Assembly: GCA_942492875.1 (NCBI GenBank)
Contig: OW818642.1
Coordinates: 2,478,606-2,542,605 of the forward strand
Length of the DNA stretch: 64,000 bases
DNA from: an uncultured Desulfuromonadaceae bacterium
GTDB lineage: Bacteria; Desulfobacterota; Desulfuromonadia; Geobacterales; Pseudopelobacteraceae
Direction: 5' to 3'
In this document: positions 550-64,000 of the stretch, one piece after another
Position numbering within the stretch: position 1 is the first letter of the stretch
Layout of the letters: each line of letters starts with the position of its first letter
The notes under the pieces: model-generated
What the model was told of the DNA's origin: nothing
The model's input: the letters and a program-made list of their open reading frames with translations, nothing else
Database searches by the model: none
Position numbers and translations under genes: made by a program

Positions 550-566
550 CAGACCGCAGGCACTGG

Positions 567-3118: not shown

Positions 3119-3165
3119 GGACTTTCCTCCGTTCGTGATGGTTTATCACAAACGAACCAAAAGTC

Positions 3166-5414: not shown

Positions 5415-5855
5415 GTGGTAGCCTGCAATCAAAAGGGGCAGGCAATGAGCGAAAAAAAGCGTAAAAGTTTCACCAGTCAGCACAAGGCAAAAGTAGCGCT
5501 TGACGCGATCCGAGGTACCAAGACGTTAAATGAGATCGCCCAAGAGTACACTGTCCATCCGACTCAGGTTGGCGAATGGAAGAGAGAGCTGCTGGCGCAG
5601 GCTTCCAGTATTTTCGAAATCAAGCGAGGCCCCAAGCCTGATGACCCTTCCTCCAGCCCTGAGCGTCTTTACTCTGAGATCGGGCGGTTGAAGATGGAAC
5701 TGGACTGGCTTAAAAAAAAGTCCGGATCGGCCATTAGCAGACCGCAGGCACTGGGTGAGTCTGTTGGATCCCATGACGCTAACCCGACAATGCGCGTTAG
5801 CTGGTGTCGCTCGTTCCACCGTTTATTCCTCACATTTGGTCGCCGAGCCAAATGA
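5415..5855 (+). CDS. IS-A copy 2 transposase OrfA with frameshifted, extended C-terminus
   Basis: Identical to orfA of copy 1 up to ...LKKKSG. It then reads through in an altered frame because of the 1-bp deletion. Confidence 0.7.
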   Translation: MVACNQKGQAMSEKKRKSFTSQHKAKVALDAIRGTKTLNEIAQEYTVHPTQVGEWKRELLAQASSIFEIKRGPKPDDPSSSPERLYSEIGRLKMELDWLKKKSGSAISRPQALGESVGSHDANPTMRVSWCRSFHRLFLTFGRRAK

Positions 5856-6660: not shown

Positions 6661-6929
6661 ACGGATTATTGTCTTGACCAAAGGGTCCACTAAACCGTTT
6701 CAATGACCTTATCTAGATCCCAGGTGAATAAGGTGGTGATAAATATCTTATCTGGCTCTCTTAAGCCATCTGGATTGCCAATTCCAACCTGACTATATAT
6801 TTCACACCCACGATGTTTATCCTTAAGCATAGATGAAATCTTCATTAAGCCCAACGGAGGATATACTGTCTTTGCAATTGGTTCTACCAACAAAAATTGT
6901 TTTGAGCTTTCATACATTACATACATCTC

Positions 6930-7193
6930 CTATTCTTTATCACTTAGTACATTAGGCCATTTTCTAACAATTCGCAGCACTTCCTGATCGTCTAATAGAT
7001 TTAGCATATTCATAAAGGCAGCGATTGCTAATGGAGCTTTCCCCGATCGCTCATATTCAATGTATGTTCTGTGCTTGACGCCAATCCGCGCCGCCATTTC
7101 CTTTTGAGATATCCGACACGCCTCTCTTGCCGCAATCAAATGATGAGCTTCACAAACTAAGCTACTGAAATTATAGGATTTATCTTTTTGCAT
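6930..7193 (-). CDS. XRE-family helix-turn-helix transcriptional regulator
   Basis: 87 aa with an HTH (ISQKEMAARIGVKHRTYIEYERSGK). AT-rich. Its stop codon lies 4 bp before the rSAM start codon, so it is translationally coupled and the first gene of the operon. Confidence 0.6.
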   Translation of the reverse strand: MQKDKSYNFSSLVCEAHHLIAAREACRISQKEMAARIGVKHRTYIEYERSGKAPLAIAAFMNMLNLLDDQEVLRIVRKWPNVLSDKE

Positions 7194-7207
7194 CGGGCTA
7201 TATTAGA

Positions 7208-7300
7208 TTGATTTTATTTGCATTACAATAAAAAAGATATTTTTTGATTTTATTTGTATTAAATATACATTTTTATGCATATTTTAAGCTTAAATATGCA
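7208..7300. promoter_or_regulatory. Candidate operator/promoter region of the XRE–rSAM–ATPase operon: two 18-bp direct repeats plus a near-palindrome
   Basis: TTGATTTTATTTGCATTA (7208-7225) and TTGATTTTATTTGTATTA (7244-7261) match 17/18, with starts 36 bp apart. Near-palindrome TGCATATTT(T)AAGCTTAAATATGCA at 7276-7300. All lie in the AT-rich leader 15-110 bp upstream of the XRE start. Confidence 0.4.
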
Positions 7301-7799
7301 AGAATTTACCGCCAGTCAATTTGGGTTTTTTACTGTCTGTGTCCACTATGTATGGCGCCTGTACGATTTTGGGATTGGGATGAAGGGCGTTATGGAGAAG
7401 GCAAACAAGGGTTCTGCCATGGCAGCAGCTGGATTAACCTGAGAGTAGAAAGACTGCAGGGCTGTTGGAGCCGGGTAAGAGATGAGGGGGGAACGAGGTC
7501 ATGGCAACTGTTGATGTTGCTGGATCAGTTCGCCATGCGTGACAATGGAAAGTTCGCAAATAATCGCTGTACTCATTCCCAGTTTATGCACCCTTTTTGA
7601 ACTCTGGGCAATATTATGCTTCCTCAATAACGCGGGTAGCCAACTAAATCACGTCAAATTCCTGTCCTCCGTGCCGTTTTATGCTTCTTTTGGTTACCAG
7701 CTTATGGTTCAAGACACAAAATATTGTGCGTGCGGGGCTGGATATTTCTGGTATATTCGAAAAATAGAAATTATGGGATCAGCACGGGAGGACACAGGG

Positions 7800-10307
7800 A
7801 TGGTTCAAAAAAAGAAACGCACAATAATTAACTCACCGGGTTTGACGGAGTTGCCGCCACTGTCGCTGGACGCATCCGGCCTGGTCCACGATTACCGGCG
7901 GTATTTCACCTATACCCTCGGCCAGAATAAATACTGCCATTCGGTCAAATATTTTTACAAGGCTCTGGCGCTGACGGTTCGCGACCGGTTGATGGAACGA
8001 TGGAAGATGACCCGTTACACGTACGTCGAGTCAGGATGCAAGCATGGTTATTATCTGTCGCTTGAATTTCTGATGGGGCGGGCTCTCGGTAATGCCATGC
8101 TGAATATCGGCATAACCGATGCCGCTACAGAGGCGATGGGGCAGCTCGGCATCAAGCTGGAAGAGCTGGCCGAGGCCGAGGTTGATGCCGGTTTGGGCAA
8201 CGGCGGACTCGGGCGTTTGGCGGCCTGCTTTCTCGACAGTTGTGCCACCCTGCAGTTGCCGGTTATGGGGTATGGTCTTCGCTATGAATACGGCATGTTT
8301 CGCCAGCGGATCGTGGATGGGCGGCAGATTGAGGAGCCTGACCACTGGTTGCTGGACGGTAACCCCTGGGAACAGGAGCGCCCGGAATATACCCAGCGCG
8401 TCCGTTTCGGCGGCCGCTGTGAACACTTTACTACCGAGAGTGGCGGGTCGCGTGTCCGCTGGGTCGACAGCCGGGATGTGCTGGCGGTCCCCTACGATAT
8501 TCCGATCCCCGGGTATCGTAATGGCACCGTCAACACGCTGCGCCTCTGGAAAGCGGCTGCCACCGATGTCTTTGATCTCGGTGAATTCAATGCCGGCGAC
8601 TATGCCGAATCGGTCGCCACCAAGAATGAAGCCGAAAATATCACGATGGTGCTTTACCCGAACGATGCCAGCGAAAACGGTAAAGTCCTCCGTTTGCGCC
8701 AGCAGTATTTTCTCGCCTCCGCCAGTCTGCAGGACGTTGTTGAACGCTGGGTAATGGTGCGCAAGGGGGACTTCAGTAAATTTGCAGTCAGTAACTGTTT
8801 TCAGCTGAACGACACCCATCCAAGCTGTGCCGTGCCCGAGCTGATGCGGATTCTGATAGACGAACAGGGGATGGGGTGGGATCAGGCCTGGGGGATTACC
8901 TGTCAGACGATGGCGTATACCAATCATACCCTGCTTCCGGAAGCACTGGAAAAATGGCCTTTACCGCTTTTTGGCCAACTTCTGCCCCGTATTCTGGAGA
9001 TAATTCTGGAGATCAACGCCCGCTTCATCTTCGAGGTTTCCGGCCGCTGGCCAGGTGATAACGAGCGGATCAGGCGCATGTCCATCATTGAGGAGGGTGC
9101 GGTTCCCCAGGTGCGGATGGCGTATCTGGCGATAGTCGGGAGTTTTTCCGTCAACGGTGTCGCTGCGCTGCACTCTCAACTCCTTACCCAGGGGCTGTTC
9201 CGCGATTTTTATGAACTCTGGCCGGCCAAGTTCAACAACAAGACCAACGGTGTGACGCCGCGCCGCTGGATCGCCAACAGCAACCCCGGATTAAGTCGAA
9301 TGGTGAGCGAAAAGATCGGCGAGGGGTGGGTGGGCGACCTGCAGCAGATCAACAGGATTGCCGCTCTTGCGGATGATCCGCAGTTCCGGCAGCAGTGGCA
9401 TGATGTCAAGCAGGGGAACAAGGAGCGTCTTGCGGCTCTTGTGCAGGCCCAGTGTGATGTTGCATTCAAGCCTGAGGCTCTTTTCGATGTCCAGGTCAAG
9501 AGGATCCATGAGTATAAGAGGCAGCTCCTCAACATACTGCACGTCATCCACCTGTATGATCGTATCAAGCGCGGCGATACTGCCGGTTGGACCGATCGCT
9601 GCGTGCTGATCGGCGGGAAGGCTGCGCCCGGGTATGTCATGGCCAAGCTGATCATCAAGCTGGTCAACAATGTGGCGCAGGTGATAAATGCCGATCCGAT
9701 GGTCGGGGACAGGCTCAAGGTGGCATTTCTCCCCAATTACAGCGTGACCGCCATGGAGGTTATCTGTCCCGGCACCGACCTGTCTGAGCAGTTGTCAACG
9801 GCCGGCAAGGAAGCTTCAGGGACCGGTAACATGAAGTTCATGATGAATGGCGCGGTGACCATCGGCACCCTGGATGGTGCCAATATCGAGATCCGTGAGG
9901 AGGTTGGCGACGACAATTTCTTCATGTTCGGCCTGACGAGCGAAGAGGTCGATGAACTGCGTCAGCGCTACGATCCGCAGGGGACCATCAACCACGACGA
10001 CGATTTGCAGCGGGTTATGAACCTCCTCCGCTGCGGTCACTTCAGCCTGTTTGAGGGGGGGCTCTTCAATCCGATCATCGACGCGATCTGCTCGCCTCAT
10101 GATCCCTGGATGGTTGCTGCAGACTTCCGCAGCTTCATTGATGCTCAGCAGCGGGTCTCGGTGGCGTATCAGGATCGGGAGCGCTGGGTCCGCATGAGCA
10201 TCATGAACACCGCTTGCAGCGGCAAGTTCTCCACCGATCGTACGATCAGCGAATACAACGAGGATATCTGGCACCTGAAGGCAACATCGATCTGTGATGG
10301 GGAATAA
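7800..10307 (+). CDS. glgP: Glycogen/alpha-glucan phosphorylase
   Basis: Contains the PLP-lysine signature EASGTGNMKFMMNG and the conserved GT35 core. The likely start is the ATG at 7800 after GGGAGG. The track ORF from 7539 adds an implausible hydrophobic extension. Confidence 0.9.
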   Translation: MVQKKKRTIINSPGLTELPPLSLDASGLVHDYRRYFTYTLGQNKYCHSVKYFYKALALTVRDRLMERWKMTRYTYVESGCKHGYYLSLEFLMGRALGNAMLNIGITDAATEAMGQLGIKLEELAEAEVDAGLGNGGLGRLAACFLDSCATLQLPVMGYGLRYEYGMFRQRIVDGRQIEEPDHWLLDGNPWEQERPEYTQRVRFGGRCEHFTTESGGSRVRWVDSRDVLAVPYDIPIPGYRNGTVNTLRLWKAAATDVFDLGEFNAGDYAESVATKNEAENITMVLYPNDASENGKVLRLRQQYFLASASLQDVVERWVMVRKGDFSKFAVSNCFQLNDTHPSCAVPELMRILIDEQGMGWDQAWGITCQTMAYTNHTLLPEALEKWPLPLFGQLLPRILEIILEINARFIFEVSGRWPGDNERIRRMSIIEEGAVPQVRMAYLAIVGSFSVNGVAALHSQLLTQGLFRDFYELWPAKFNNKTNGVTPRRWIANSNPGLSRMVSEKIGEGWVGDLQQINRIAALADDPQFRQQWHDVKQGNKERLAALVQAQCDVAFKPEALFDVQVKRIHEYKRQLLNILHVIHLYDRIKRGDTAGWTDRCVLIGGKAAPGYVMAKLIIKLVNNVAQVINADPMVGDRLKVAFLPNYSVTAMEVICPGTDLSEQLSTAGKEASGTGNMKFMMNGAVTIGTLDGANIEIREEVGDDNFFMFGLTSEEVDELRQRYDPQGTINHDDDLQRVMNLLRCGHFSLFEGGLFNPIIDAICSPHDPWMVAADFRSFIDAQQRVSVAYQDRERWVRMSIMNTACSGKFSTDRTISEYNEDIWHLKATSICDGE

Positions 10308-18548: not shown

Positions 18549-18763
18549 GTCTGTTGGGAAGACCCTGCTGAAAAATAAATATATAGATTTAAATATTCGG
18601 ATCTGATATTTTGTCCATCTGCCTTGACGGCTACCCGTGTACGGGAGTTGATCTGGAAGTCGGCAGTCAGTACAGTACATACCGCACGGATTCGGAAGCG
18701 AACCGGGACGGAGGGGACACCCCCTGCAGATTGGCAGCAGCAAGTGCCGATCTGACCGTTCAC

Positions 18764-45017: not shown

Positions 45018-45305
45018 CCGGTGATTAAAGCATAACGGCTCCGGTGCGTCAACCGTAACCCCCCGTTTTTTCCAAAAAACACCCTGGCAACTAGGAGGGG
45101 AAGTTACCAGGGCAAATGAGGATTCGTGGGAATCCTCGCAAGATTATCTCTCATTTAAATATACCAGCACCACCGTATGATGGCAAGCGTATAAGTTGTA
45201 ACTGGCCGGTATCTAAGGGAAAACAATAATAACGAGAGCAATGGGAACGGTCACGCAGCTAATAGATAGCCGGGTTGTCTCGTCACTCTGCGTGCCACTC
45301 CGAGT

Positions 45306-53237: not shown

Positions 53238-53343
53238 ATGATAGCCGGGTTTACCCGCGGCACACAGCAGGAGCCGCTGCCGTTGCTTCCTTCCGGACCT
53301 GGCGGAGTTCACGGCGTGCCGTTGCGCGAGGCCCGGCTATCAT
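53238..53343 (-). ncRNA. ffs: Signal recognition particle RNA (small 4.5S type)
   Basis: Minus strand contains the conserved domain IV sequence CAGGUCCGGAAGGAAGCA. It is closed by the helix AUAGCCGGG...CCCGGCUAU. Sits immediately upstream of dnaX as in many bacteria. Ends approximate to ±5 nt. Confidence 0.7.
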
Positions 53344-53496: not shown

Positions 53497-53587
53497 TGGC
53501 GGAGAGAGAGGGATTCGAACCCTCGGTACGCTATTAACGTACACACGCTTTCCAGGCGTGCTCCTTCAACCGCTCGGACATCTCTCC
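53497..53587 (-). tRNA. tRNA-Ser (anticodon GGA) with encoded CCA
   Basis: Minus strand folds as a cloverleaf: acceptor GGAGAGA/UCUCUCC, anticodon stem CACGC/GCGUG with loop CUGGAAA, long variable arm, T-arm GAGGGUUCGAAUCCCUC, then GCCA. Confidence 0.9.
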
Positions 53588-53698: not shown

Positions 53699-54442
53699 AT
53701 GAAGATTGCCGTCATAACTGCCATGCCGGAGGAGTTCAACGCCGTATCCCGCTGTCTGGGGGCTGGCACCGCCATGCGGCTGGCCGGCCTCAAAGCTTTC
53801 AGCTGCCATGCCGGCGGGCACGATCTTTTGCTGCTCTTGTCCGGTATGGGGTTTGATAATGCTGCCCGGGCCGCAGAGGCGGCCATTCGGGAGTGGCGGC
53901 CCAACCTGCTCGTCTCTGCCGGTTTTTGTGGCGGGATAGCACCGGAGCTTAAGGTTGGAGATGTTGTGGTGGCGAAGCAAATGGTGATTGTAACCGGTAA
54001 CGGACCTGAGGAGGTGCCGGTGCTTTTTGCAGCAGCCGGGCAGAACTTTGTGGCGCGTGAGAGCGGCATGCGCGTATGTGGAGGATTGTTTGCCAGTACA
54101 CCGGTCATCATGTCAAAAAAACGGCTGGCCGGAATGCTGCCGGCCGGAAGTACCAATCCGGTGGTCGAGATGGAGAGTGCGGCGGTTGCCATTATCGCCG
54201 TTGAAAACAGTATTCCGTTACTGGCAATCCGGGCGGTCAGCGATTCTGCTGATGAGGAACTCGGCTTCTCGCTGGAGGAGTTTTGTGACGCGGGGTTACG
54301 CCGCATCAGCATACACAAGGTGCTGCTGACTGTTTTGCGGAAACCCCGTATAATCCCGCAGCTTGTGCGCCTCTCCCGCAACAGCCGCGTCGCTGCAAGC
54401 AGTCTGACGGCGGCGTTGTCCCGCCTATTTCCCACCCTTTAA
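53699..54442 (+). CDS. PNP_UDP_1-family nucleosidase (MTA/SAH nucleosidase/HpnG-like), second paralog in window
   Basis: MKIAVITAMPEEF, ...SAGFCGG, ...VVEMESAAV motifs. Start at the internal ATG at 53699. Confidence 0.55.
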   Translation: MKIAVITAMPEEFNAVSRCLGAGTAMRLAGLKAFSCHAGGHDLLLLLSGMGFDNAARAAEAAIREWRPNLLVSAGFCGGIAPELKVGDVVVAKQMVIVTGNGPEEVPVLFAAAGQNFVARESGMRVCGGLFASTPVIMSKKRLAGMLPAGSTNPVVEMESAAVAIIAVENSIPLLAIRAVSDSADEELGFSLEEFCDAGLRRISIHKVLLTVLRKPRIIPQLVRLSRNSRVAASSLTAALSRLFPTL

Positions 54443-55294
54443 AATACGTCCCGCCGGGGACCAGGGATAATCGCGCAGATGTTCCCCCAGCTGCTCTTTC
54501 GTATAAGCATTAACCCGCCTCAACGACAGCGTCACCACGATCAGAAACGGCAGCGTGTACATCAGTATGCCGCAAAACGCCATGAAGCGCTCGCCGATGA
54601 TCAGCGTCATGGCGATATTGAAGATCAACACAGACAGATACAACAGCGGGCCTATGAGGGAGTGGAAGGGAAGGGTGACAAGGCCGGACGCCGTTTCGTC
54701 GAGGCGCCGGGCATCGATCAGCTGAAACGCCGCAATGAGGCAAAAGCTGGTCAGCAGCCACCCCGCATAATTGGAAAGCGGCACACCGAAGTGGAGTCCC
54801 GCTTCGCGGTAGCCATAAATCTGCCCCAAAAACCAGCGATGCCCCTGCAGTGCCACCGGGTCGATCACGATATCGAGGAAGGTTTGCAGGAATGAGCCTA
54901 AAATCAGCGCTGCAAATGAACGCCGGATGCGGCGGGTCTCCAGCGTCACAACATTCCAGCGCCACGCTCGGAGCGGCGAGATGATGAAAAGTGCGGTGGA
55001 GTAGCTGCAATAAGAGAGAAAAACATAGGAGAGCGAGTCGAAGAACGGCACCCCGGCAATCCAGAGTTCGCGACAGCTGGTGGTGTCGATGTAATAGTAC
55101 CAGCCATAGGGAAAGCCGGTGTTGATGGAGAGCCACTCCGAGCCGAAGGCGATGGTGTAGCCGACCAGTGTGAAGGTCATGGTTCTCTTCCACCCGACGT
55201 GTGGCACACAGACGAGCAGGAATGCTCCGAAGAAAGCGAATACATACGGGCGCATCGTAACGGTGCCGATGGCTATGTCGAGGAGATGGGGCAT
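54425..55294 (-). CDS. Polytopic membrane protein, DUF422/carotenoid-biosynthesis-protein-like family
   Basis: About 8 TM helices. Convergent 18-bp overlap with the nucleosidase gene. Confidence 0.4.
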   Translation of the reverse strand: MPHLLDIAIGTVTMRPYVFAFFGAFLLVCVPHVGWKRTMTFTLVGYTIAFGSEWLSINTGFPYGWYYYIDTTSCRELWIAGVPFFDSLSYVFLSYCSYSTALFIISPLRAWRWNVVTLETRRIRRSFAALILGSFLQTFLDIVIDPVALQGHRWFLGQIYGYREAGLHFGVPLSNYAGWLLTSFCLIAAFQLIDARRLDETASGLVTLPFHSLIGPLLYLSVLIFNIAMTLIIGERFMAFCGILMYTLPFLIVVTLSLRRVNAYTKEQLGEHLRDYPWSPAGRILKGGK

Positions 55295-55335: not shown

Positions 55336-58300
55336 TTACCTGACAAGCCAGAACTGCCCCTGAGGGGTGCGGGCTATCCTGATACGTCCGGTGGAATCAA
55401 CCATGACAATTTCCGTCACGGAAGATTTTTCCTCATGCTTGAGGTTTTCAGCGAAGATGTGACCGGTAATAGACAACTCATACGAGACCAGATAGCCGGC
55501 GTTGAGGCCGTTCTGTTCGATGCGTACATTGCCCATCTTCAGTTGAATCTGATCGAACACGGAAAACATGTTACGGAAGTAATCCTGAACATCAGCCAGG
55601 GTCGTACCGTCACCTGCCGACCAGTCGTCGTCGAGGCACCCCATCAGTCCGGAGTCGTTTTTTGCTTCATAGGCTTCGCTGAATTTCTGATAAAAAGAGT
55701 GGATTTGCAGCTTGTCGTTCAGGATGTTTCTGACTTCAACGTCTTCGGGAGAAAGCTGCCCCAACGCCTCAATATCGCGATTGACAGACGCCCCTCCATT
55801 CTTGGCAAGCTCTTCCAGATGCTCTTTCCACTCCTGCTCGTTAGTGGTGATGAAAAACCGCGCTGCGCTTTTCATGGCGCTTAGTTCGTCTTTGAGCGCC
55901 AGCATAACCCGGTTTGCTCCTGAAGCGGCCAGGTCGAGCGCCCTGTCAAGATCCTTCTCCAGTGCGCTCATCTTATCGAGGCGGCGAATTGCCGTTGTCT
56001 CATCACGGGCAGTTTTGAAGCGCTCCTGAAAAGTTTTCCTCTGAGCAGTGATCTCTCCGGCGAACAGCGTGAGATCCTTTTTCGCCTTGTTTTCCGCCGC
56101 TCCCCAGATGCTGAGCATCTTCGAAAAGCGCTTATACCCCTCCAGTGTAGCGGGACCAACAGCAGGGCCGCCTTCACGATAATAAATCCCCTTGCCGTAG
56201 GACTGGACCAACTTCTGCAGTGATTCAATGCGGTGCCCATTTTCTTTCCAGGCCTTTTGCAATGCTGAATAAATCTTCGTGCCGTCGGATGATCCTGTGT
56301 CGTCCGGCGTAATAAGCCAGACGCCATCTTTTTGCATGAACGCCTGAGTTGCCCGAGCCGACTCCACTGCCTCGTCGCCTGTGTAGGTGAAATTCTGCAG
56401 TCCCTTTGCCGCCAGGGCACTGCGGTCGATAATAGCCAGAGCCAGCTCATCCATATCGGCATACCACTGGAGGGTAGAGGCTGCATCCTGTATTGCTGCA
56501 AGGGACGTGTTGTAATTCTGTACAACATAGGACCGGTTGAGCGCCGCACTGTGGTCAAGAATTTCAGGAGCCATAAAGAGCGGTTCAGCTTTAATGCTGT
56601 TGAACTTCCCTGTCAAAAAGAGGGTGACTGCAGCATCGCCGCTTTCAAAACAGTGAAAAGTCGCAATGCTGCCGCACCAGTTGTTGCCGGCAATCTGTTC
56701 CGCTCCGAGGCGGGCAACAAGCGTGCTGTCTGCCGGCCTGATTTTTTCGGAAAACATTTTTCTAAATGCATCCAGAATAGCCCGTGCTGCAACGGCTCGA
56801 TCGGCAAAGAACGTTTTTTCCTGCCCCAGCATAGTTCCAGCCAGAGAGGCATCCTGTTGTGCTTTTTTTCCCGCTTTTTTCATGTCCTGGTAGGCTTTTA
56901 GATAAAACCCAGGCCGGGCGTCGTAAAATGTGCCATTTTCCTTCAGCTCGCTGATGACGGTAAGATACGTTCCGGCCTCGCTTCCGAACAGGTTGGCGTA
57001 GGCCAGCGCCATGAACTCCTTATCCCCCGGACGGGAAAAATATATATTGGCGGTGCTCAGTTGAGCTCCGATGCTCTCTTCGAGTGATTTAGCCATCTGC
57101 TTTGACTCGGCATTAAAACCCTTGATCCTGTCGCTGAGGCTCTGCATGGCGCTGCGGGCGGCGCTGCGCGCCAGCTCCAGACGGGTCTCAGCCTCCAGAC
57201 GCATTGCGGCTATTTTGGCATCAAAAAGAGCTTTCCGGGCCTTCGTATATGACTGGCTTCCCTCACTGAAAACCAGCAGGTTGCCAGGCAGCTCAATGAG
57301 GGAACCGCTTTCACCGTTCGCCAAAGCCGCCGCACGAATAGCGCTCCGATATTCATCCGCAAAAGCATTCTCCTCAAACTCAATCAGTGACTGGTCATAT
57401 CCCTTGGATGGTGACTCGTTATATTCCTTCAGAGCAATTTCCAGGTGTTGCAAGGCCGGTTCCATAACGATCGGCTGAAAGGTTCGCTGTGTCTGCCCCC
57501 TGGCAATTTCTTCGCTTTGCTCCTTTGCCTCTTTCCCCATTTGCTCGGCGGCGTCCTTTTTATGCGCAAGAACCGTCCCCTTAAACTGATTGAAAACCTT
57601 CAGCCCCTCGGCTGCCTGGATAGCGGCCGCTGCAGTCAGGGCGCTCACCTGGCTTTCGGCGAGTTTTTTATCACTCTCTGCCTGATCGACGAGGTTCATG
57701 ACCTCCTGCTGGGCAATCCTTTCCGTGCGATGCTTCGCCATCAGTGAGCTGCGCATGGCTATAATCTGATCGGCGATGGCCTGTTTCATTTTCTCTTCGC
57801 CCGCATCGGTTCCTGTTCCGGCCCACATGCCGCTGTAATCGACCAGTTCCCAATCGGTGTCGATCTTGGCCCGGATGGCCGATGGGGACTTGTCTATCAC
57901 CCACTCGCCGAAACCCTGGGGATTGCCCTGAATATCGGGGAAGATAGTATTGACCTTGCCGGCCAGGGCTGTGTCAAAGGCATATGCCATGACATATTCA
58001 CCCAGACTGATAACTGCCCCCTGGGCAAGGCGAAAGGTTCCCCAGCCGGGTACCAAAGCTCCAAGTACTTCATCGGCCACCGAACCGCCCAGTGACCGCA
58101 GGCCCGCTTCGGCCCCTCCGCTGTTCCAGGCCTGATAGGTTGACCAGCCGATTTCCGCCGATTTGATGCTTCCGTCCAGTATTTTCATGCTTACGCCAAG
58201 ATGCACGTCGATGTCGGCCTTGACACCCGGCCACAGCGTACTCAGGCTTTTATCTTCAATCAGCATCTTGCCGACAAGGAGGGGAGCCTGTTGCTGCAGC

Positions 58301-58626
58301 AGCCCGAGGCGGATCTGTTTTGCGGCAAACGCCTTGGTCGCCGCCAGCAGTGCCGTTTTGGTCCGGTCTACCACCTCCGCCTGTACCTTGCCTTCCACGT
58401 TTTCAAGGATGAAGTTCATCTTCTGTTCGTTTGTGGTCAGTCTTTGGTACGCGGGGTCGATGCGGAAAACCACATCATAGGCGGCAATCAGGGTTGCCGC
58501 CGCCTTCCCTTCAGGCGTCTGATCAAAAGCAATTTTCTCGGCGGCGCAAGAAATTTGCACCGTCGAGAAAACCAGAAACAGGGTAACCATGGTCAACGCA
58601 ATGGTCCGGAAAGTAACTCTATTCAT
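55336..58626 (-). CDS. Large secreted coiled-coil protein (1096 aa) with about 110-aa C-terminal domain shared with the 62176..>64000 product
   Basis: Signal peptide (LVFSTVQISCAAE). Mostly alpha-helical and Ala/Lys/Glu-rich. C-terminus DDDWSAGDGTTLADVQDYFRNMF...NLKHEEKSSVTEIV...GQFWLVR. Confidence 0.5.
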   Translation of the reverse strand: MNRVTFRTIALTMVTLFLVFSTVQISCAAEKIAFDQTPEGKAAATLIAAYDVVFRIDPAYQRLTTNEQKMNFILENVEGKVQAEVVDRTKTALLAATKAFAAKQIRLGLLQQQAPLLVGKMLIEDKSLSTLWPGVKADIDVHLGVSMKILDGSIKSAEIGWSTYQAWNSGGAEAGLRSLGGSVADEVLGALVPGWGTFRLAQGAVISLGEYVMAYAFDTALAGKVNTIFPDIQGNPQGFGEWVIDKSPSAIRAKIDTDWELVDYSGMWAGTGTDAGEEKMKQAIADQIIAMRSSLMAKHRTERIAQQEVMNLVDQAESDKKLAESQVSALTAAAAIQAAEGLKVFNQFKGTVLAHKKDAAEQMGKEAKEQSEEIARGQTQRTFQPIVMEPALQHLEIALKEYNESPSKGYDQSLIEFEENAFADEYRSAIRAAALANGESGSLIELPGNLLVFSEGSQSYTKARKALFDAKIAAMRLEAETRLELARSAARSAMQSLSDRIKGFNAESKQMAKSLEESIGAQLSTANIYFSRPGDKEFMALAYANLFGSEAGTYLTVISELKENGTFYDARPGFYLKAYQDMKKAGKKAQQDASLAGTMLGQEKTFFADRAVAARAILDAFRKMFSEKIRPADSTLVARLGAEQIAGNNWCGSIATFHCFESGDAAVTLFLTGKFNSIKAEPLFMAPEILDHSAALNRSYVVQNYNTSLAAIQDAASTLQWYADMDELALAIIDRSALAAKGLQNFTYTGDEAVESARATQAFMQKDGVWLITPDDTGSSDGTKIYSALQKAWKENGHRIESLQKLVQSYGKGIYYREGGPAVGPATLEGYKRFSKMLSIWGAAENKAKKDLTLFAGEITAQRKTFQERFKTARDETTAIRRLDKMSALEKDLDRALDLAASGANRVMLALKDELSAMKSAARFFITTNEQEWKEHLEELAKNGGASVNRDIEALGQLSPEDVEVRNILNDKLQIHSFYQKFSEAYEAKNDSGLMGCLDDDWSAGDGTTLADVQDYFRNMFSVFDQIQLKMGNVRIEQNGLNAGYLVSYELSITGHIFAENLKHEEKSSVTEIVMVDSTGRIRIARTPQGQFWLVR

Positions 58627-58661
58627 TGGTGTCCTTCCTTCTAAAGAAGGTTATGGCAGTA

Positions 58662-59933
58662 TCAGAAGCTGCGTGACCCATTCGGCTGGTACTTGTACTC
58701 GAAGACATTATTTGCCGGACCTTGCTCACCGATATATTTGATGAGGGCGTAGGTGTTGTTGGGTAATTTGACGGCAAACACCGCACCTTCAGTTGAGAAA
58801 TGAACGTTCTGGCCCCAGCCACTGTCCGGTATGGTTATATTGGAAAAAGAAGAGCCCATGTAACTCAGCAAGACTGCACCGTTACCCCAGATCAGATTAC
58901 TTTCTTTGTAAATTTCCGATGCAGCAATCAGTGTTGTTGGTATGTCTTGAGTGAAATTGAATCCATCTGCGCTGGTGCAGGGAGGAGTGCATGTGTTTGT
59001 CAGCGTAAAACTTCCTGTAACCAGATCACTATCCCCGTTGGTAATCGAATCTACCGGAGCAACCAGAACAGTGCCATTGGAGCTGATCTGAATTACGGCA
59101 CTGTTTTCAGCCGAATTGACCGTGCCGGTTGCGACTTCCGATGCGTCTGACAGGCCGAAGATCAGCGGGTTCTTCATACTGAATACCAGTGGCCCCTTTT
59201 CGCCAAGAGTGAAAACAAACTCACTGACCCCTTTGTCGCGCAGTGTTTGACCGCTTCTCGTTGAAGTCAGCTTGCGGCTGAAGGAAAAGGACGCATAAAT
59301 TTTCCCGGTGGCGGCGGTGACGTTGTTGATTGTGTAGGTAATGTCGATATTTTCGAAGGCGCTGAAGTCTCTTCTGATTGCACGGTCCAGCACCGACGGA
59401 TCGCCGGCGAAATCCTCACCCACCAAAGCCATGAAGCGCATCGGATCTTCTGCCCGGTAGGCGGCAATCATCTCATTCACTGCCTGGCGGACCAGTGCAG
59501 CGATATTCTGATCGCTGATCGCTATTTCCTTGCGGGTGGCATCGACTTCATTTGATTTTCCGGTGGTGTCGATGATTTTGACGAACAGCACGTATGTTTT
59601 TCCCGCTTCCGGACGGAAGCTGTATTCAAAACTGCCATCGGAACTTTTGCGGGCTTTTTCCCAACTTTCCTTGTTGTTGTTGCTGACCTGCACCGAGCCG
59701 ACCGCCGAGGAGCTGGTGGCCGCTTTGCCGCGCAGCACAATCTGACCGTTTTCCAGCGTCTCACGGTAGACCGTGACCTTGTCTCCCAGTTCATCGTAGG
59801 AAACGCCGTTCAGGTACAAGTATTTGGTTGATATCTCGTTTTCAGACTGGCCGAAGATCCACCATTTGGCCTGGCTGGTGGCCGGTAGCAGGGCCAAAAG
59901 TGTGATGACAATAAAATAACGCAACAGATTCAT
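58662..59933 (-). CDS. Secreted protein with NTF2-like (SnoaL/DUF4440-like) domain and C-terminal beta-rich domain
   Basis: Signal peptide MNLLRYFIVITLLALLPATSQA. The central segment MRFMALVGEDFAGD...RRDFSAFENIDITYTINNV...PLIFGL is homologous to the downstream lipoprotein. The start is the M at 59933, not the track M at 60026. Confidence 0.5.
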   Translation of the reverse strand: MNLLRYFIVITLLALLPATSQAKWWIFGQSENEISTKYLYLNGVSYDELGDKVTVYRETLENGQIVLRGKAATSSSAVGSVQVSNNNKESWEKARKSSDGSFEYSFRPEAGKTYVLFVKIIDTTGKSNEVDATRKEIAISDQNIAALVRQAVNEMIAAYRAEDPMRFMALVGEDFAGDPSVLDRAIRRDFSAFENIDITYTINNVTAATGKIYASFSFSRKLTSTRSGQTLRDKGVSEFVFTLGEKGPLVFSMKNPLIFGLSDASEVATGTVNSAENSAVIQISSNGTVLVAPVDSITNGDSDLVTGSFTLTNTCTPPCTSADGFNFTQDIPTTLIAASEIYKESNLIWGNGAVLLSYMGSSFSNITIPDSGWGQNVHFSTEGAVFAVKLPNNTYALIKYIGEQGPANNVFEYKYQPNGSRSF

Positions 59934-59958
59934 AAAAATCTCCTTGAATTGAATTGAT

Positions 59959-60441
59959 TCAATGTAGTCCAAACAGCCGTGGGCCGCGCTGACTGTACAG
60001 TTTATAGACACCATCCTCCAGTACAAAAACTAGAGAGGTCTCTTTTGTTTCGCTCTTGGTTTTACTGGTCTTGATGTCGGTCCAGCCGCGGGTGAAGGTG
60101 ATGGCAATAAATGCTTTGTTGCCCGTGCTGTCAAGGGTGATGTTGTTGACCGTATAGCGGAGCGACAGGTTGTGGTAGACACTGAAGTCCCGCTGGATTG
60201 AGGTGTTGAGGATACCCGCTTCACCGGTATAGTTGCCGCTTGTCAGTTCTGTGAACTGACGGCTGTTTTTTGTTTCGTAGGCGGAAATGAGTTGGTCAAG
60301 GGACTGCCTTATCTGGGTATGCCGTGCCATGGTGATGGCTGAAGACGATTCTCCGGCACCGCCGGTTGTTACTCCGGCGCAGGCGGTGAGTGTGGTGCAT
60401 GGAAGCAGTAAAAGTAATCCGGCTATGACAAGTCTGCGCAT
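59959..60441 (-). CDS. Lipoprotein with NTF2-like domain
   Basis: Signal peptide with lipobox LTAC. RQFTELTSGNYTGE...QRDFSVYHNLSLRYTVNNI...PRLFGL. Confidence 0.5.
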   Translation of the reverse strand: MRRLVIAGLLLLLPCTTLTACAGVTTGGAGESSSAITMARHTQIRQSLDQLISAYETKNSRQFTELTSGNYTGEAGILNTSIQRDFSVYHNLSLRYTVNNITLDSTGNKAFIAITFTRGWTDIKTSKTKSETKETSLVFVLEDGVYKLYSQRGPRLFGLH

Positions 60442-60494
60442 GTATCCCCCTGTAGAATGTGTGTTAATGACGGAATTTCAGGTGACAGCTGTTT

Positions 60495-62102
60495 TCAGAA
60501 CTGTACGCTGACGCCGCCGGTGATGCTGTTTTCCTGGAAGTCCTGGCTGCCACCGGCAACGTTGGGTTTGTAGCTGAAGTCGTTGATTGACGCCTTGGCG
60601 TAAACCATTCCCTGTAGTTTGATCAGCATTTCGGGTCGCCAGAAAATGTTCATATTGGCAAAGGTCTTGGTGGTATCGGTACCGGCCTCTTTTACGAGGC
60701 GGTTTTCGCCAACCTTGAAGGTTGATGTGACCTTGACAGCAGGGATGTCCACACCGAGGCCGACGGAATATTCATAAATCTGGTCGGTTGCCTGTGGTGC
60801 CGCTAATTCTTCATTGCTGGTCCAACCACCAAGATTGACGCCCGGTTTCAGGACGAACATGCCAACGGTATGCCGACTGGAGAGGGCGGTGTTATAGGTG
60901 TATTCCTGCGCCCTGCGGCTGCTCTTGGTGTCGTAAAGTATGATGCCGAAGTTGGTGTCACTGTCTAAAACACCGAAACGATCACGGTAGCTTGTATTGA
61001 TGAACTGATCAAGGGTATCGACGGTTTGGCTGCGGGTACGGTCGAGCTTGTAGCTGATGTCGGCTACGGCATACTGGCGCTTGAAGGGCCGCTTGATGGA
61101 GACACTGATCTCCGGTTTGTAATGGTCTGTCGTGTCACCCAACTGGCCGTCAAGGTTGTTACGGTACCAGAGCATGGCGCTGGTAATAGACAGATTCTTC
61201 GTATACTTGTAGCGCCATTTGGCTTTGGCTTTTTCCCGGTCAGGAGTTGCCGAGCCGACCATTGTCTTGAAGCCGGGAGCAACCCGTTCGTATTCGAGTG
61301 TTACCCTGCTGGGGCCGCCGTCACCGGTGACGAGGAGTTTGTGCGCGTTGCCGCTGAATTCGGTAGAGGTGCCGCTTTGGGCTGAAGTATCGCCATCTGC
61401 CCAGGAAGATTCACCCTGCACGGTGAGGCCGGGGATAGGGCGGTATTCCCAGTCAACGGTGTAGGCCTGTTCATCCACCAAGTCGCCACCCATTACCCGG
61501 ACGTGGTCTGTTGTCTTGACGCCGCTGAAACCGAGCCAGAAGTCGGAGCCGATGTTCTGCTTGATTTTCGCTCCGCTAACATGGCGCTCCACGGCGTCTA
61601 CACCCCAGAAATTATCCCAGCGGCTATAGGCAATTCCGTACAATGTCGACAGGGACGTGCCGTAGTTACCGTCGCGCTGATATTTGTAGGAACCGCCCTT
61701 GACAGCGGTGTTGAGTGCATATTGGGAAAATGATTCAAAGGTGTCGCCGACGGTCAGAGTGTGGGTCTTGTTCGTCATCCGTCCCTGCAGGTTGGTCAGC
61801 GAAGAGCTTTTCTGGTCGTTGCGCGGGTCGCTGGTCGCCTTGGCTCCCACGTTCCAGTTGTAGTCAAATTCGCCCAACCGGCCGTTGCCAAAGAGGTTCA
61901 GGATTTCCAGATACCGTCCGCCTTCGGTAAGTGATGATTGGCTGCCCGCACCAGGGCCGGTAACATCGTTGAAGGTAAGGGAAAAATCGTTGGAACCGTG
62001 GATTTCGTGCTCGGCCGCCCGGGAGGCCGCAGGCGCCAGAGTTGCGACCGCTATCAGTGCTGATAACAGCTGCAACCGCCTGCTTCTTCTCAATTGATAC
62101 AT
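60495..62102 (-). CDS. Outer-membrane beta-barrel protein
   Basis: Signal peptide (LAPAASRAAE). Alternating amphipathic beta-strands rich in Y/T/G. C-terminal ...GGVSVQF with terminal Phe. Confidence 0.55.
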   Translation of the reverse strand: MYQLRRSRRLQLLSALIAVATLAPAASRAAEHEIHGSNDFSLTFNDVTGPGAGSQSSLTEGGRYLEILNLFGNGRLGEFDYNWNVGAKATSDPRNDQKSSSLTNLQGRMTNKTHTLTVGDTFESFSQYALNTAVKGGSYKYQRDGNYGTSLSTLYGIAYSRWDNFWGVDAVERHVSGAKIKQNIGSDFWLGFSGVKTTDHVRVMGGDLVDEQAYTVDWEYRPIPGLTVQGESSWADGDTSAQSGTSTEFSGNAHKLLVTGDGGPSRVTLEYERVAPGFKTMVGSATPDREKAKAKWRYKYTKNLSITSAMLWYRNNLDGQLGDTTDHYKPEISVSIKRPFKRQYAVADISYKLDRTRSQTVDTLDQFINTSYRDRFGVLDSDTNFGIILYDTKSSRRAQEYTYNTALSSRHTVGMFVLKPGVNLGGWTSNEELAAPQATDQIYEYSVGLGVDIPAVKVTSTFKVGENRLVKEAGTDTTKTFANMNIFWRPEMLIKLQGMVYAKASINDFSYKPNVAGGSQDFQENSITGGVSVQF

Positions 62103-62175
62103 GGCATCTCTCCTTTTTTTCGAGTTGTTACTTTTAAGGGGTGATTGAAACTTTATAATAAATTATGGTTTGCCG

Positions 62176-64000
62176 TCATTGTACATACCAGAAACGCCCG
62201 TTAATGGTGCGGCTGATACGCGGTTTGCTGCGGTTGTCGAGAGACACCTCCTCGTTGACGCTGGATTTTTCCTCATGTTTCAGATTATGGCGGAAGTTAC
62301 GACCGGTGATAGTTACATCGTAGGAAACTCTGTACGCCGATCCGTTCCACGAGTGGTTCAAATTTGACATCTGGTAGGTGATCTGATCAAACACCGTGAA
62401 GCTGTTGCGCAGATACCCTTGCAGGTCTGCCAGCGTCGTGCCGTCGCCGGATTCCCAGTCATCGCCGATCATCGCCATGACCGCCGACTCGTTGCGGGAT
62501 TCGTAGGCTTCCTTGAACTGATCGTAAAATGTCCGTGCAAGACGTTCATCGAACGCGGTTGGCGGGGGAGCTGATGGCTTGCTGGCCCATTGTCGAATAA
62601 AGAAAAACCGCTGTTTATACTCGGGTTCCATCCGCGTAAAAAAATCCTGCTGGCTTGGAGACAGCTTCGGATCAGTGGCTGCCGAGGCAAGAAAGCTCAT
62701 GATGGCTGATTCTTTGGCTGCTGCCTGTTTATAAAGCTCTCTGACGACAGGATCGTGCATGTTCCTGTCGTAGGCGGCTTTAGCATCAAATTCGAGGGAC
62801 GACAGGTTGCCGACTACGTCGCTGAATTGTTCCATCATCTTCTCAAAATAGACTTCTGCGTTTTTCCATTGGCGGAAAGCCATCAGCTTCTTTTCAAAGA
62901 CGGCCACCACTCCGAGAATACTGGACCGGGTTTGATCTTCCCAGCAGTTAGCCGCGACCTCCCGAAGAAAATCCAACCCTTTATCGGAATAATTGGCAAG
63001 ATCGATTGTTACATTATTCACTGGTTGACTGCGCTGGGGGATGGATAATAACCCAAGGGAATCTCCCCTGACCGCCTTTTCCATATTTCGTTCAAATAAA
63101 ATGTCGGCTTTACCAACTTTTTCCAGTTCAAGTTTTATGCTATCGAAATAATCCTTGGTAATGATGCGGCACTCGCCCTGTCGTTCGATAAAGGTATAAT
63201 GTTCAGGGGCCGACATGCGGACCAGGCCGGTACGGTCGGCAATATACCTGTTCACGAAGTCCTGGAGCCCCAGGTTGTAATTCTGATCCATCCAGGTGAG
63301 GCGATTCTCGGCGAGCGAGCGGTCAAGTTGTTGCCGTGCCGAGCGAATATCGCTTGCCGACATGAAAACCCGTTGTCCTGCCAGGGCGCTGCATTTGCCC
63401 GCTTTGTAAGCTGCCGCTACCTCGGGACGAAGCACAAAGGAGCCATTCATCCCGTTAATACTGACATCCGGGTAGTGAGTCACAAATTCTCTCAACACCG
63501 GACCAAGTTGTCCGAGAATGGCCCGCAATTGGTGGAGATAGGCCAGATCGTTTTCCATATTGGCCAGATCGGTTTGGTAGATTTGCTGCGCCGACCGTGC
63601 CGATCCCTTGAGCGCCTCCCCTTTGCTCAGTAGTTCCCGGAGCTTTTGTACGAAAGGTCTTTGCTTCTCCTTCAGGTTTTTTACCCGATATTCCATGAGC
63701 CGTTGGTTTGAACTCCACGAGCTTTCTGCCAGTACTGTTTCAAGCTCCAGCACCTTTTCTTCAAGAATGGCAATGTCCCCTTTTCTCGCTGCCAAGCTCT
63801 CAACCTGGGCAACCATGCCATCAATACCGCTGATCAGAGATGACAGGGGAGCTGTCCTCCCGCAAAAGGGTGTATGCGCCGCTTCCTCGCTTATTCTTTG
63901 GCTTAACGACTGCAGATAAGATCCATGTCGCCCGGTAAATGAGCCAACATCATCGCCGGGCGTAAAGGTTCCCTGAGGAAACTTCAGCCGGCCAAGCCCC
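62176..64000 (-). CDS. Large coiled-coil protein, 5'-partial (continues beyond window end), with the shared C-terminal domain
   Basis: The frame is open for 61 codons upstream of the track start at 63816 through to position 63999, so the gene is truncated by the window. C-terminus GDDWESGDGTTLADLQGYLRNSF...NLKHEEKSSVNEEV...GRFWYVQ parallels the 1096-aa protein. Confidence 0.5.
   Translation of the reverse strand, partial: GLGRLKFPQGTFTPGDDVGSFTGRHGSYLQSLSQRISEEAAHTPFCGRTAPLSSLISGIDGMVAQVESLAARKGDIAILEEKVLELETVLAESSWSSNQRLMEYRVKNLKEKQRPFVQKLRELLSKGEALKGSARSAQQIYQTDLANMENDLAYLHQLRAILGQLGPVLREFVTHYPDVSINGMNGSFVLRPEVAAAYKAGKCSALAGQRVFMSASDIRSARQQLDRSLAENRLTWMDQNYNLGLQDFVNRYIADRTGLVRMSAPEHYTFIERQGECRIITKDYFDSIKLELEKVGKADILFERNMEKAVRGDSLGLLSIPQRSQPVNNVTIDLANYSDKGLDFLREVAANCWEDQTRSSILGVVAVFEKKLMAFRQWKNAEVYFEKMMEQFSDVVGNLSSLEFDAKAAYDRNMHDPVVRELYKQAAAKESAIMSFLASAATDPKLSPSQQDFFTRMEPEYKQRFFFIRQWASKPSAPPPTAFDERLARTFYDQFKEAYESRNESAVMAMIGDDWESGDGTTLADLQGYLRNSFTVFDQITYQMSNLNHSWNGSAYRVSYDVTITGRNFRHNLKHEEKSSVNEEVSLDNRSKPRISRTINGRFWYVQ

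Follow-up and report, generated by a model that had tools for sequence, protein, structure and literature searches.

MtrB, a 26-strand barrel of the MtrCAB complex (PDB 6r2q), is a sheath around MtrA, and the 26-strand barrel of LptD has its lumen plugged by a small lipoprotein, LptE. Ushers such as FimD and PapC have 24 strands together with a plug and N- and C-terminal domains, and the substrates of the chaperone-usher pathway are Ig-fold pilins. In type IX, Slam/type XI, and autotransporter systems, diverse bodies with Sec signals share one extreme C-terminal domain, an Ig-like sandwich or a beta-barrel, and their genes adjoin that of a dedicated outer-membrane protein. Slam is a 14-strand DUF560 barrel with an N-terminal TPR domain, and its cargo carries a C-terminal 8-strand barrel. 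NTF2-like domains, whose superfamily includes SnoaL_2/3, DUF4440, NTF2_YvbJ, and the C-terminal domain of Csd6/Pgp2, pair in NTF2 homodimers and NXF1-NXT1 heterodimers, and their cones commonly bind small hydrophobic ligands.

Here, we analyze a cluster at the end of a 64,000-nucleotide stretch of DNA (the window) that encodes a very wide, predicted 26-strand barrel, an adaptor termed P, a lipoprotein, and two giant proteins, BIG-1 and BIG-2. The cluster is a real gene module without a named family that occurs in several phyla, and it is probably a new way to anchor or display large proteins at the cell envelope. The literature we searched contained no account of such a barrel/P/giant system, although absence there is not proof.

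Results

Layout of the Locus

The initial annotation listed five ORFs on the minus strand, and all five were found where it had placed them. Read in the coding direction, the first is the 3' part of BIG-1 (62176 to 64000, with the frame open to the window edge), corresponding to residues 573-1180 of an exported protein of ~1180 aa; the fragment is 90% identical over 608 aa to those residues of the 1180-aa protein of locus L089, which has a signal peptide at its N-terminus. Next come the barrel (60495 to 62102), a 535-aa outer-membrane protein with a signal peptide and the terminus VQF, a 160-aa lipoprotein with a single NTF2-like domain that ends in GPRLFGLH (59959 to 60441), the 423-aa P with a signal peptide and three domains (58662 to 59933), and the 1096-aa BIG-2 (55336 to 58626), in which a signal peptide precedes a helix-rich body of no recognizable family and an NTF2-like domain at the C-terminus. 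Intergenic gaps from BIG-1 to BIG-2 are 73, 53, 25, and 35 nt. For P, the ATG start that yields 423 aa was chosen on homologue support, the mechanical ORF beginning at a TTG at 60026. The five genes do not make up the complete block, however: a relative with 92 to 94% DNA identity has six, encoding a 400-aa P paralogue, the 1180-aa giant, the barrel, the lipoprotein, the 423-aa P, and the 1096-aa giant. The locus beyond the window edge was read from such relatives. Promoter and terminator scans performed no better than on shuffled sequence.

All four complete window proteins have a basic n-region and a hydrophobic h-region at the N-terminus, in keeping with Sec export, and the lipobox LTAC of the lipoprotein fits the precursor pattern [LVI][ASTVI][GAS]C. 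Scans of the five proteins against Pfam, NCBIfam, PADLOC, and PHROGs returned nothing significant, nor did PDB sequence and profile searches, where designed NTF2 proteins were the only weak matches. No family in these resources covers any of the five, in support of the earlier remark that the C-terminal domain matched no named family.

Four NTF2-Like Domains of Two New Subfamilies

The C-terminal domains (CTDs) of BIG-1 (62179 to 62550, minus strand, ending in GRFWYVQ) and BIG-2 (55339 to 55716, minus strand, ending in GQFWLVR) had been called homologous, and they share 52% identity over 126 aa (E 3e-38). The related segment noted in P (59148 to 59504, minus strand) and the lipoprotein is 30% identical over 116 aa (E 3e-21). 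A link between these two domain types was detected by BLASTP (E 0.022 over 118 aa), against a Geobacter sulfurreducens YM18 homologue (E 3e-4), and by profile-profile comparison (probability 95.5%, E 1.4e-8). Judged from sequence, the similarities are far beyond chance, and the proposal that one domain is used four times in the cluster is borne out by the profile-profile homology. The predicted NTF2-like fold was likewise recovered, as an alpha+beta cone of ~110 to 130 aa with three helices on a curved antiparallel sheet.

Membership in SnoaL_2, SnoaL_3, DUF4440, Cds6_C, or NTF2_YvbJ was rejected, as the window domains score 12.7 to 15.5 bits, below the gathering threshold of every family (22 to 27); only P0275, an unrelated member, passed the SnoaL_3 threshold, and it did so with an additional domain. 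The window domains are two distinct new NTF2-like subfamilies with the tail motifs PLIFGLS, RLFGL-COOH, and GRFWYV-COOH. The CTD was carried by only 379 of 1.84 billion representative proteins, and in all 150 that were listed of these 379 it ended no more than 8 residues from the protein C-terminus.

Within the CTD, the conserved polar residues (Y, W, H103, E105, and D64) could form a ligand pocket instead of a docking surface. That the NTF2-like domains are enzymes of an isomerase, dehydratase, or hydrolase type, acting on an envelope lipid or glycan while the barrel merely localizes them, is quite improbable, since the CTD and the P/lipoprotein subfamilies conserve different residues, no member other than P0275 reaches an enzymatic Pfam threshold, and an enzyme is rarely found as the final 120 aa of a 1000-aa protein whose body is interchangeable.

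A Predicted 26-Strand Barrel without a Plug

In agreement with its earlier assignment as a beta-barrel outer-membrane protein, the AlphaFold2 model of the barrel has 26 strands by DSSP and a calculated C-alpha radius of ~23 to 24 Å. It starts right after the signal peptide and has no periplasmic domain. Because its loops are at most 15 aa long and it has no plug, we reason that its lumen must be filled by a partner protein. Conservation was highest at lumen-facing positions (0.72), followed by lipid-facing positions (0.62), loops (0.59), and turns (0.58), and one strand bears a basic ladder (R289/K291/K293/R297/K299) that faces the lumen.

Structural matches were led by MtrB, with the usher pores FimD and PapC next. 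Sequence identity to MtrB is 9%, no barrel member matches Pfam MtrB_PioB, and a Pfam scan of 21 barrel homologues gave no link to any outer-membrane protein family. Unlike MtrCAB, the cluster encodes no multihaem cytochromes, and the partners of the barrel are NTF2-domain proteins. A porin-cytochrome complex was rejected because no CXXCH motif occurs in any of the five window proteins and no cytochrome families were found among neighboring genes. The combination of a 26-strand barrel and a small lipoprotein recalls LptD-LptE, and we propose for the NTF2 domains a role equivalent to that of LptE; however, Pfam and NCBIfam scans detected neither an OstA jellyroll nor an LptD C-terminal match, and the lipoprotein is NTF2-like rather than of the LptE fold. 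The plug and terminal domains of ushers are all missing here, the putative substrates are helix-rich giants rather than pilins, and the cluster proteins have no Pfam match to the Usher or PapD families.

The Adaptor P and the Lipoprotein

The mature N-terminus of P is an invariant K-WWIFGQ (motif at 59847 to 59864), and WW[IVL]FG was present in 83 of 87 P proteins, 86 of which have a signal-peptide-like N-terminus. In the monomer model, the motif has a pLDDT below 50, as would be expected for a partner-binding peptide. An Ig-like domain (aa 34 to 140) is followed by the NTF2-like domain (aa 144 to 253), a conserved NPLIFGLSD, and a HmuY-like beta domain (aa 280 to 423). The last is variable: the upstream P paralogue has a different domain in its place, and one close relative lacks it. 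Sub-threshold matches to the HmuY Pfam family were found in 10 of 56 P members, and the window protein had none. Unlike the HmuY surface lipoproteins of Bacteroidota, P has no conserved haem-ligand residues, its conserved columns in this domain containing no His, Met, or Cys, and membership in the HmuY haemophores was rejected. Orthologues of the lipoprotein were present at only ~15 of 84 loci, some without the Cys; most lineages can do without it.

The barrel lining, with its balanced charges, could just as well suit a substrate that is conducted through it. A transport complex, in which the barrel is a ligand or polymer channel that P closes as a ligand-binding lid or plug, with the giants as accessories, would accommodate the highly conserved charged lumen with its basic ladder, the HmuY-like domain of P, the tendency of NTF2 cones to hold ligands, and the polar residues of the CTD. 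We consider it improbable. The barrel has no TonB box or plug, and the conserved nearby genes include none for ABC, periplasmic-binding, or polysaccharide-synthesis proteins; the lack of conserved His, Met, and Cys in P and of CXXCH motifs also counts against it, and it leaves the docking domain at the extreme C-terminus of every giant, as well as the exchange of giant bodies, without explanation.

Giant Proteins with Interchangeable Bodies

BIG-1 and BIG-2 had been described as dominated by coiled coil, a description that did not survive scoring: only 10 to 12% of their residues were heptad-like, partly within the NTF2 domain, by a crude home-made heptad score that flags 88 to 100% of tropomyosin and Lpp. 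They are high in helix-forming residues (Ala 13.5%), yet are not long canonical coiled coils, and the continuous heptads over most of the length that typify Lpp, the OmpM/SlpA stalk, and tropomyosin were not found. Coiled-coil fibers are not supported by the same score, and a fixed structural fiber is disfavored because the bodies are interchangeable and only the C-terminal module is common. The two giants are indeed paralogous over their last ~230 to 315 residues, but not over the rest of their length.

Giants range from 900 to 1400 aa, and 75 of 81 have a signal-peptide-like hydrophobic N-terminus. Their bodies fall into at least five classes, among which profile-profile comparison finds only the last ~125 to 240 aa in common, and Pfam scans of 8 and then 43 diverse giants identified no body domain except, among the 43, TPR repeats in one protein and the extra SnoaL_3 domain. 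Body replacement is evident even among close relatives. Against a relative with 86% DNA identity, the BIG-1 body is wholly replaced up to a breakpoint where the CTD starts, whereas P (88%), the barrel (87%), and the CTD (83%) are retained at the protein level; similarity of BIG-1 to the close relative L085 has a sharp onset at window position ~62510. In G. sulfurreducens YM18, the counterparts of the barrel, lipoprotein, and P are 60 to 70% identical to those of the window, whereas the giant is alike in the CTD only. A word-indexed homologue search with BIG-2 recovered just two near-identical proteins because its body is poorly conserved, and an iterative HMM on its N-terminal 450 aa converged on just two relatives; the giant family was therefore gathered via the CTD and synteny.

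These observations bear on a periplasmic tether or scaffold, a reading close to that of the initial annotation. In it, giants stay in the periplasm, suspended from the barrel/P complex via their NTF2 domains, and either connect the outer membrane with the cell wall or inner membrane or organize the periplasm. Such a role is possible but doubtful. With ~10% heptad-like sequence, the giants are not rod-like coiled coils, and Pfam scans found in them no domain for binding peptidoglycan and no SLH, OmpA-like, or transmembrane anchor. Complete body swaps between close relatives, and several body classes without detectable similarity beyond the C-terminal region, would also be unusual for a structural tether that had to fit conserved partners, and the rarity of the module (about 98 of 185,579 species genomes) argues against a general envelope requirement.

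Distribution and Synteny

About 80 related loci were found in Desulfobacterota, Nitrospirota, Elusimicrobiota, Omnitrophota, Lentisphaerota, and a few Gammaproteobacteria, with hosts including Geobacter/Desulfuromonadales, Syntrophorhabdus, Smithella, Desulfatiglans, Thermodesulfovibrio/Nitrospirae, Elusimicrobia, Omnitrophica, Victivallales, and Fluviicoccus. P was present at 71, and a giant at 64, of 79 loci with a barrel gene. At the 56 loci whose contig reaches at least 5.5 kb downstream, the order barrel, (lipoprotein), P occurred in 46 and barrel, P, giant in 38. Of 77 giant genes, 59 are directly preceded by P (47) or a TPR protein (12), with a median gap of 14.5 nt; the TPR protein, which lacks an NTF2 domain, is the partner of class-12 giants. 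The recurrence of barrel, adaptor, and giant in this order across phyla supports the initial annotation in treating the genes as a functional unit, although the conserved core is not the five-gene block but three genes: the barrel, the Ig-NTF2-beta adaptor, and the giant.

The genomic surroundings of the cluster vary from lineage to lineage, a pattern that suggests horizontal transfer and would suit chance neighbors or a mobile, phage, or defense element rather than a functional system. This is very improbable and strongly disfavored by the synteny statistics, as the same order recurs with very short gaps in at least five phyla, PADLOC and PHROGs gave no match, and no integrase or transposase adjoins the cluster. 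Other neighbors were rejected as parts of the system: those in Elusimicrobia (M23 peptidase, glutamine synthetase-like, PNPase, FtsK, and others) reflect housekeeping synteny, and the downstream Caroten_synth gene accompanies the cluster in close relatives only.

Discussion

We tentatively propose, as a possibility that falls short of probable, that P and the giants dock through their NTF2 domains on the barrel or inside it, and that the barrel anchors or displays variable proteins. With similar reserve, the cluster may be a dedicated outer-membrane complex of a kind not described before. The 26-strand barrel would be a membrane platform occupied by a partner, for which P, almost always encoded beside it, is the candidate. 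NTF2-like domains would act as common docking modules, either by pairing mutually or by sitting in the ~3-nm lumen of the barrel, or in both ways; P and, where present, the NTF2-only lipoprotein would seal the barrel or serve as its adaptors. Held at the outer membrane through their CTD, the giants would expose interchangeable, fast-turnover bodies, most likely on the cell surface.

Diverse bodies with Sec signals joined to one extreme C-terminal domain, encoded beside a dedicated outer-membrane protein, are also the logic of type IX, Slam, and autotransporter systems. Here, however, the CTD is an NTF2-like cone, the taxa differ, the barrel departs from Slam in its 26 strands and its lack of a periplasmic domain, and Pfam and NCBIfam scans revealed no T9SS, DUF560, or autotransporter families. 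An unrecognized secretion or display pathway, in which the plug-less barrel exports the variable giants, their NTF2 "cork" retains them, P is gatekeeper, and the bodies are cassettes exchanged between strains, seems rather unlikely. Docking and display must contend with the absence, among the nearby genes, of any for an energy source or inner-membrane component that would account for a route across the outer membrane, if there is one, with helix-rich proteins of ~1000 aa being atypical secretion cargo, with the TPR partner of class-12 giants having no NTF2 domain, and with the missing lipoprotein in most lineages.

If the docking model holds, the module would be a new family of outer-membrane machines that joins a giant barrel with NTF2 cones, both known folds, in a previously undescribed way. 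Several hundred "hypothetical" proteins, among them "dark" giants of 900 to 1400 aa, would gain a name and a role open to testing, and the few known C-terminal signals for targeting or anchoring would be joined by a new domain. A cultured strain, G. sulfurreducens YM18, has an orthologous four-gene version, making the model genetically testable if the strain is tractable. The hosts are environmentally important anaerobes (Geobacter, syntrophs, Thermodesulfovibrio, Elusimicrobia, and Omnitrophica), and a variable surface layer in electroactive or syntrophic communities may bear on cell-cell, cell-mineral, or phage contacts.

A six-gene locus encoding exported proteins

Five co-directional ORFs occupy window positions 55336 to 64000 on the minus strand, with intergenic spacing of 73, 53, 25, and 35 nt. 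The first encodes a giant exported protein and reaches the window edge as an open frame (62176 to beyond 64000; at least 607 aa visible). It is followed by a 535-aa protein with the C terminus VQF (60495 to 62102), a 160-aa lipoprotein with the lipobox LTAC (59959 to 60441), a 423-aa protein designated the adaptor P (58662 to 59933), and a second giant protein of 1096 aa (55336 to 58626). The start of P is ambiguous (59933 to 60026). The mechanical ORF begins at TTG 60026, has 454 aa, and overlaps the lipoprotein gene. A start farther upstream is also used in one database entry for P, of 450 aa; the ATG at 59933 is backed by homologues and the signal peptide.

The locus beyond the window edge was read from relatives, chiefly the metagenomic contig L089, whose DNA is 92 to 94% identical to the window over the entire cluster. 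There, the order is a DcuB transporter, a P paralogue (400 aa), a giant (1180 aa), the 535-aa protein, the lipoprotein (160 aa), P (423 aa), a giant (1096 aa), and a Caroten_synth membrane protein, and the partial giant of the window corresponds to residues 573 to 1180 of the 1180-aa protein. From this full arrangement, the locus has six genes, 4.5 of them inside the window. The Caroten_synth (PF04240) protein (289 aa, 54425 to 55294, minus strand) lies 41 nt after the 1096-aa gene and is still joined to the cluster in L085, L089, L090/L091, and L006, even with differing outer flanks. It is kept only with these close relatives and is not present in the other ~80 loci, and so is probably a passenger or accessory specific to this lineage.

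Elsewhere in the window, two directly oriented 301-aa ORFs on the plus strand (567 to 1472 and 5755 to 6660) are 100% identical and look like DDE transposases. The stretch between them is low in GC (window 1 to 8000; 41 to 45% against ~55% in the rest), an arrangement that resembles a composite transposon or an island acquired recently. At gathering score, Rfam returned a small SRP RNA and a tRNA upstream of dnaX (53240 to 53338 and 53500 to 53587, minus strand), an atoC RNA motif (45075 to 45165, minus strand), and a borderline pan motif (18625 to 18715, plus strand).

An NTF2-like domain is shared by four of the window proteins

As proposed in the initial annotation, the C-terminal domains (CTDs) of the two giants are homologous (last 126 aa 52% identical, E 3e-38) and P is related to the lipoprotein (116 aa, 30% identity, E 3e-21), the latter being essentially the domain on its own. 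These two domain types are themselves linked, by BLASTP (E 0.022 over 118 aa), by a between-type match to a Geobacter sulfurreducens YM18 homologue (E 3e-4), and by profile-profile comparison of alignments of 58 and 46 members (95.5% probability, E 1.4e-8). The suggested NTF2/SnoaL-like fold gained support from repeated sub-threshold matches to the NTF2 clan among the 58 CTD members, including Cds6_C (17/58), SnoaL_2 (11), SnoaL_3 (9), DUF4440 (8), and NTF2_YvbJ (7), with none of the domains reaching the threshold of a named NTF2 family. Membership is at the level of the fold, in the NTF2-like superfamily, below the cut-off of every named NTF2 family. An enzymatic role for these domains is conceivable, and we rate it as quite improbable. 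A metagenomic giant of 1720 aa (P0275) carries an extra SnoaL_3/DUF4440 domain above cut-off (46.9 bits) in tandem, directly before the CTD.

Giant proteins combine a conserved tail with interchangeable bodies

The giants had been described as coiled-coil paralogs. Although both are rich in helix-forming residues, a crude heptad score classed only 10 to 12% of either as heptad-like, compared with 88 to 100% of the controls tropomyosin and Lpp, and the proposed dominance of coiled coil does not hold. Paralogy held at profile level over the last ~226 to 315 residues, with no homology detected outside the C-terminal region.

The CTD is rare, being carried by only 379 of 1.84 billion representative proteins (347 at E ≤ 1e-10), mostly of 900 to 1400 aa, and it ends at most 8 residues from the C terminus in all 150 of the CTD matches listed. 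Profile-profile comparison of seven giant classes found three to be homologous along their length; in the remaining four, homology to these and to each other covers only the last ~120 to 240 aa. The family of the 1096-aa protein shares only the last ~120 to 315 aa with all seven. Signal peptide-like N termini were found in 75 of 81 giants. In the bodies of 8 plus 43 diverse giants, Pfam detected no domains besides TPR repeats in one and an extra SnoaL_3 in another.

The DNA of the syntenic relative L085 is ~86% identical from window position 62510 down to 53003, except for gaps of ~470 nt at the 3' end of the P gene (59053 to 58580) and ~130 nt at the tRNA locus, and protein identity is 88% for the upstream P, 87% for the 535-aa protein, and 83% for the CTD. 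Despite this, window positions 62511 to 64000, encoding the upstream giant's body, show no DNA or protein similarity to the 1306-aa protein of L085; hence, judged from these alignments, the body is replaced, with the breakpoint at the start of the CTD. Similarly, G. sulfurreducens YM18 proteins are 70% (535-aa protein), 70% (lipoprotein), and 60% (P) identical to those of the window, and its giant has the CTD alone in common with the window giants (52 to 61%).

The middle gene encodes a predicted 26-strand barrel lacking a plug

The initial proposal of an outer-membrane beta-barrel agrees with the AlphaFold2 model of the 535-aa protein (21-sequence alignment, pLDDT 85.5), which has 26 strands, starts immediately after the signal peptide, and has short periplasmic turns and no plug or additional domain; its outer loops do not exceed 15 residues. 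Pfam outer-membrane protein families matched none of the 21 barrel homologues. Conservation is higher at lumen-facing strand positions (0.72) than at lipid-facing positions (0.62), loops (0.59), or turns (0.58), and ~51 charged residues line the lumen, among them a basic ladder on strand 14 that is invariant. Given a C-alpha radius of ~23 to 24 Å by standard barrel geometry, the lumen would be ~3 nm wide by estimate, about as large as a single NTF2-like domain. Left open, a pore this wide would be harmful to the cell, and every known barrel of 24 to 26 strands has an occupant: LptE in LptD, MtrA in MtrB, and a plug domain in ushers. One reading of the barrel is a transport channel with P as its ligand-binding lid, which we consider unlikely.

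P was modeled on 56 sequences (pLDDT 86.8). After the signal peptide, a low-confidence segment bears the invariant mature N terminus AKWWIFGQ, a peptide that is probably unstructured, followed by an Ig-like sandwich (aa 34 to 140), an NTF2-like cone (aa 144 to 253) with a conserved NPLIFGLSD after it, and a C-terminal beta domain (aa 280 to 423) ending in YKYQPxGSRxF. The type of C-terminal domain in P correlates with the class of the neighboring giant. In L085 (12131 to 13105, against window 58580 to 59053), the P orthologue is called at 324 aa and lacks ~340 nt that encode its HmuY-like C-terminal domain, which thus appears dispensable or decaying there. The upstream P paralogue (400 to 402 aa), represented by P0183 upstream of the window in the window's own genome and by L085 4794 to 6002, retains the WWIFGQ motif and the Ig-like and NTF2 domains, and has in place of the HmuY-like domain one of ~100 aa that is fibronectin-III-like by eye and was not detected by Pfam.

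The barrel, P, and giant genes recur across phyla

Scanning one genome per species yielded 98 loci, and 80 of these were retained. They occur in Geobacteraceae and Desulfuromonadales, Syntrophorhabdus aromaticivorans, Smithella and Syntrophobacterales, Desulfatiglans, Desulfobacteraceae, Nitrospirae including Thermodesulfovibrio, many Elusimicrobia, Omnitrophica, Victivallales, and Fluviicoccus (Moraxellaceae). Across these phyla, the barrel is 41 to 55% identical. The recurrent core is barrel, P, and giant, in that order: the 79 barrel-bearing loci include P in 71 and a giant in 64, and where at least 5.5 kb follow the barrel, P is next in 46/56 and the whole triad is in order in 38/56. Directly 5' of the giant gene in 59/77 cases is P (47) or a TPR protein (12), with a median of 14.5 nt between the two genes. 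Many loci contain two or three P-giant pairs but a single barrel gene. An NTF2-only protein is present in about 15 loci, and its lipidation is not universal. The cluster is real and conserved across phyla, and its association by chance or via a mobile element is extremely improbable.

The TPR partner was found with one giant class only (~1050 to 1090 aa; L068 4022 to 5251 and 11 other loci, cluster c11), where this exported ~400-aa protein always takes the place of P, suggesting an alternative adaptor or chaperone. A divergent, upstream gene for a membrane-embedded LuxR/GerE regulator occurs in Desulfuromonadales, G. sulfurreducens YM18, and Thermodesulfovibrio, and is absent from the lineage of the window; remaining neighbors are lineage-specific housekeeping genes. 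The YM18 cluster, which has this divergent LuxR-type regulator, spans roughly 2,873,500 to 2,880,900 of AP017912. In Thermodesulfovibrio (L003/L004, 16581 to 21602), at least seven more co-directional genes without Pfam match follow the triad (174, 436, 241, 195, 187, 143, and 735 aa, the last running off the locus end) and may be extra lineage-specific parts.

Known systems and a model for the barrel complex

In agreement with the initial failure to name a family, the five window proteins had no meaningful match in Pfam, NCBIfam, PADLOC, PHROGs, or PDB sequences, every database name found for homologues was "hypothetical protein", and the cluster is unannotated in all databases examined. The system was not described in the literature searched, which is no proof of absence. 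MtrAB, LptDE, and usher pores also consist of a very large barrel and a protein that resides in it, and T9SS, T11SS, and T5SS likewise use a conserved C-terminal cargo domain. Searches for MtrB_PioB and cytochromes, OstA/LptD and LptE, Usher, plug, and PapD, the T9SS CTD, and DUF560 found none of these in the cluster. Lacking the defining families and features, it belongs to none of these systems.

By its predicted function and location, the cluster would encode a barrel complex of the outer membrane in which another protein resides or is anchored. P, with the optional lipoprotein, would seal the barrel or serve as an adaptor on it, and the giants would thereby be anchored at the outer membrane. 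Underlying this model are the plug-less 26-strand barrel with its conserved lumen, a P gene nearly always beside it, giants usually in 1:1 pairs with P, and rapid replacement of everything in the giants but the tail. Interchangeable bodies on a conserved C-terminal handle are the hallmark of cargo that is secreted or anchored (type IX CTD, Slam cargo, autotransporters, and S-layer anchoring domains), and the exchange of cassettes between strains is a typical trait of molecules exposed at the surface; both favor display of the giants on the cell surface. We tentatively prefer this composite model, in which NTF2-tailed giants are anchored via barrel and P and displayed outside, while holding it open to doubt. 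The giants could instead form a periplasmic tether or scaffold, a less probable arrangement given that they lack rod-like coiled coil and wall-binding or membrane-anchor domains, and that their bodies are swapped. That the system is a truly novel route of secretion and display is possible, if rather doubtful. An envelope specialist would be surprised to see a 26-strand barrel combined with proposed NTF2 docking domains and with giants whose bodies are cassette-like, and the orthologous four-gene version in cultured G. sulfurreducens YM18 offers a route to experimental tests.
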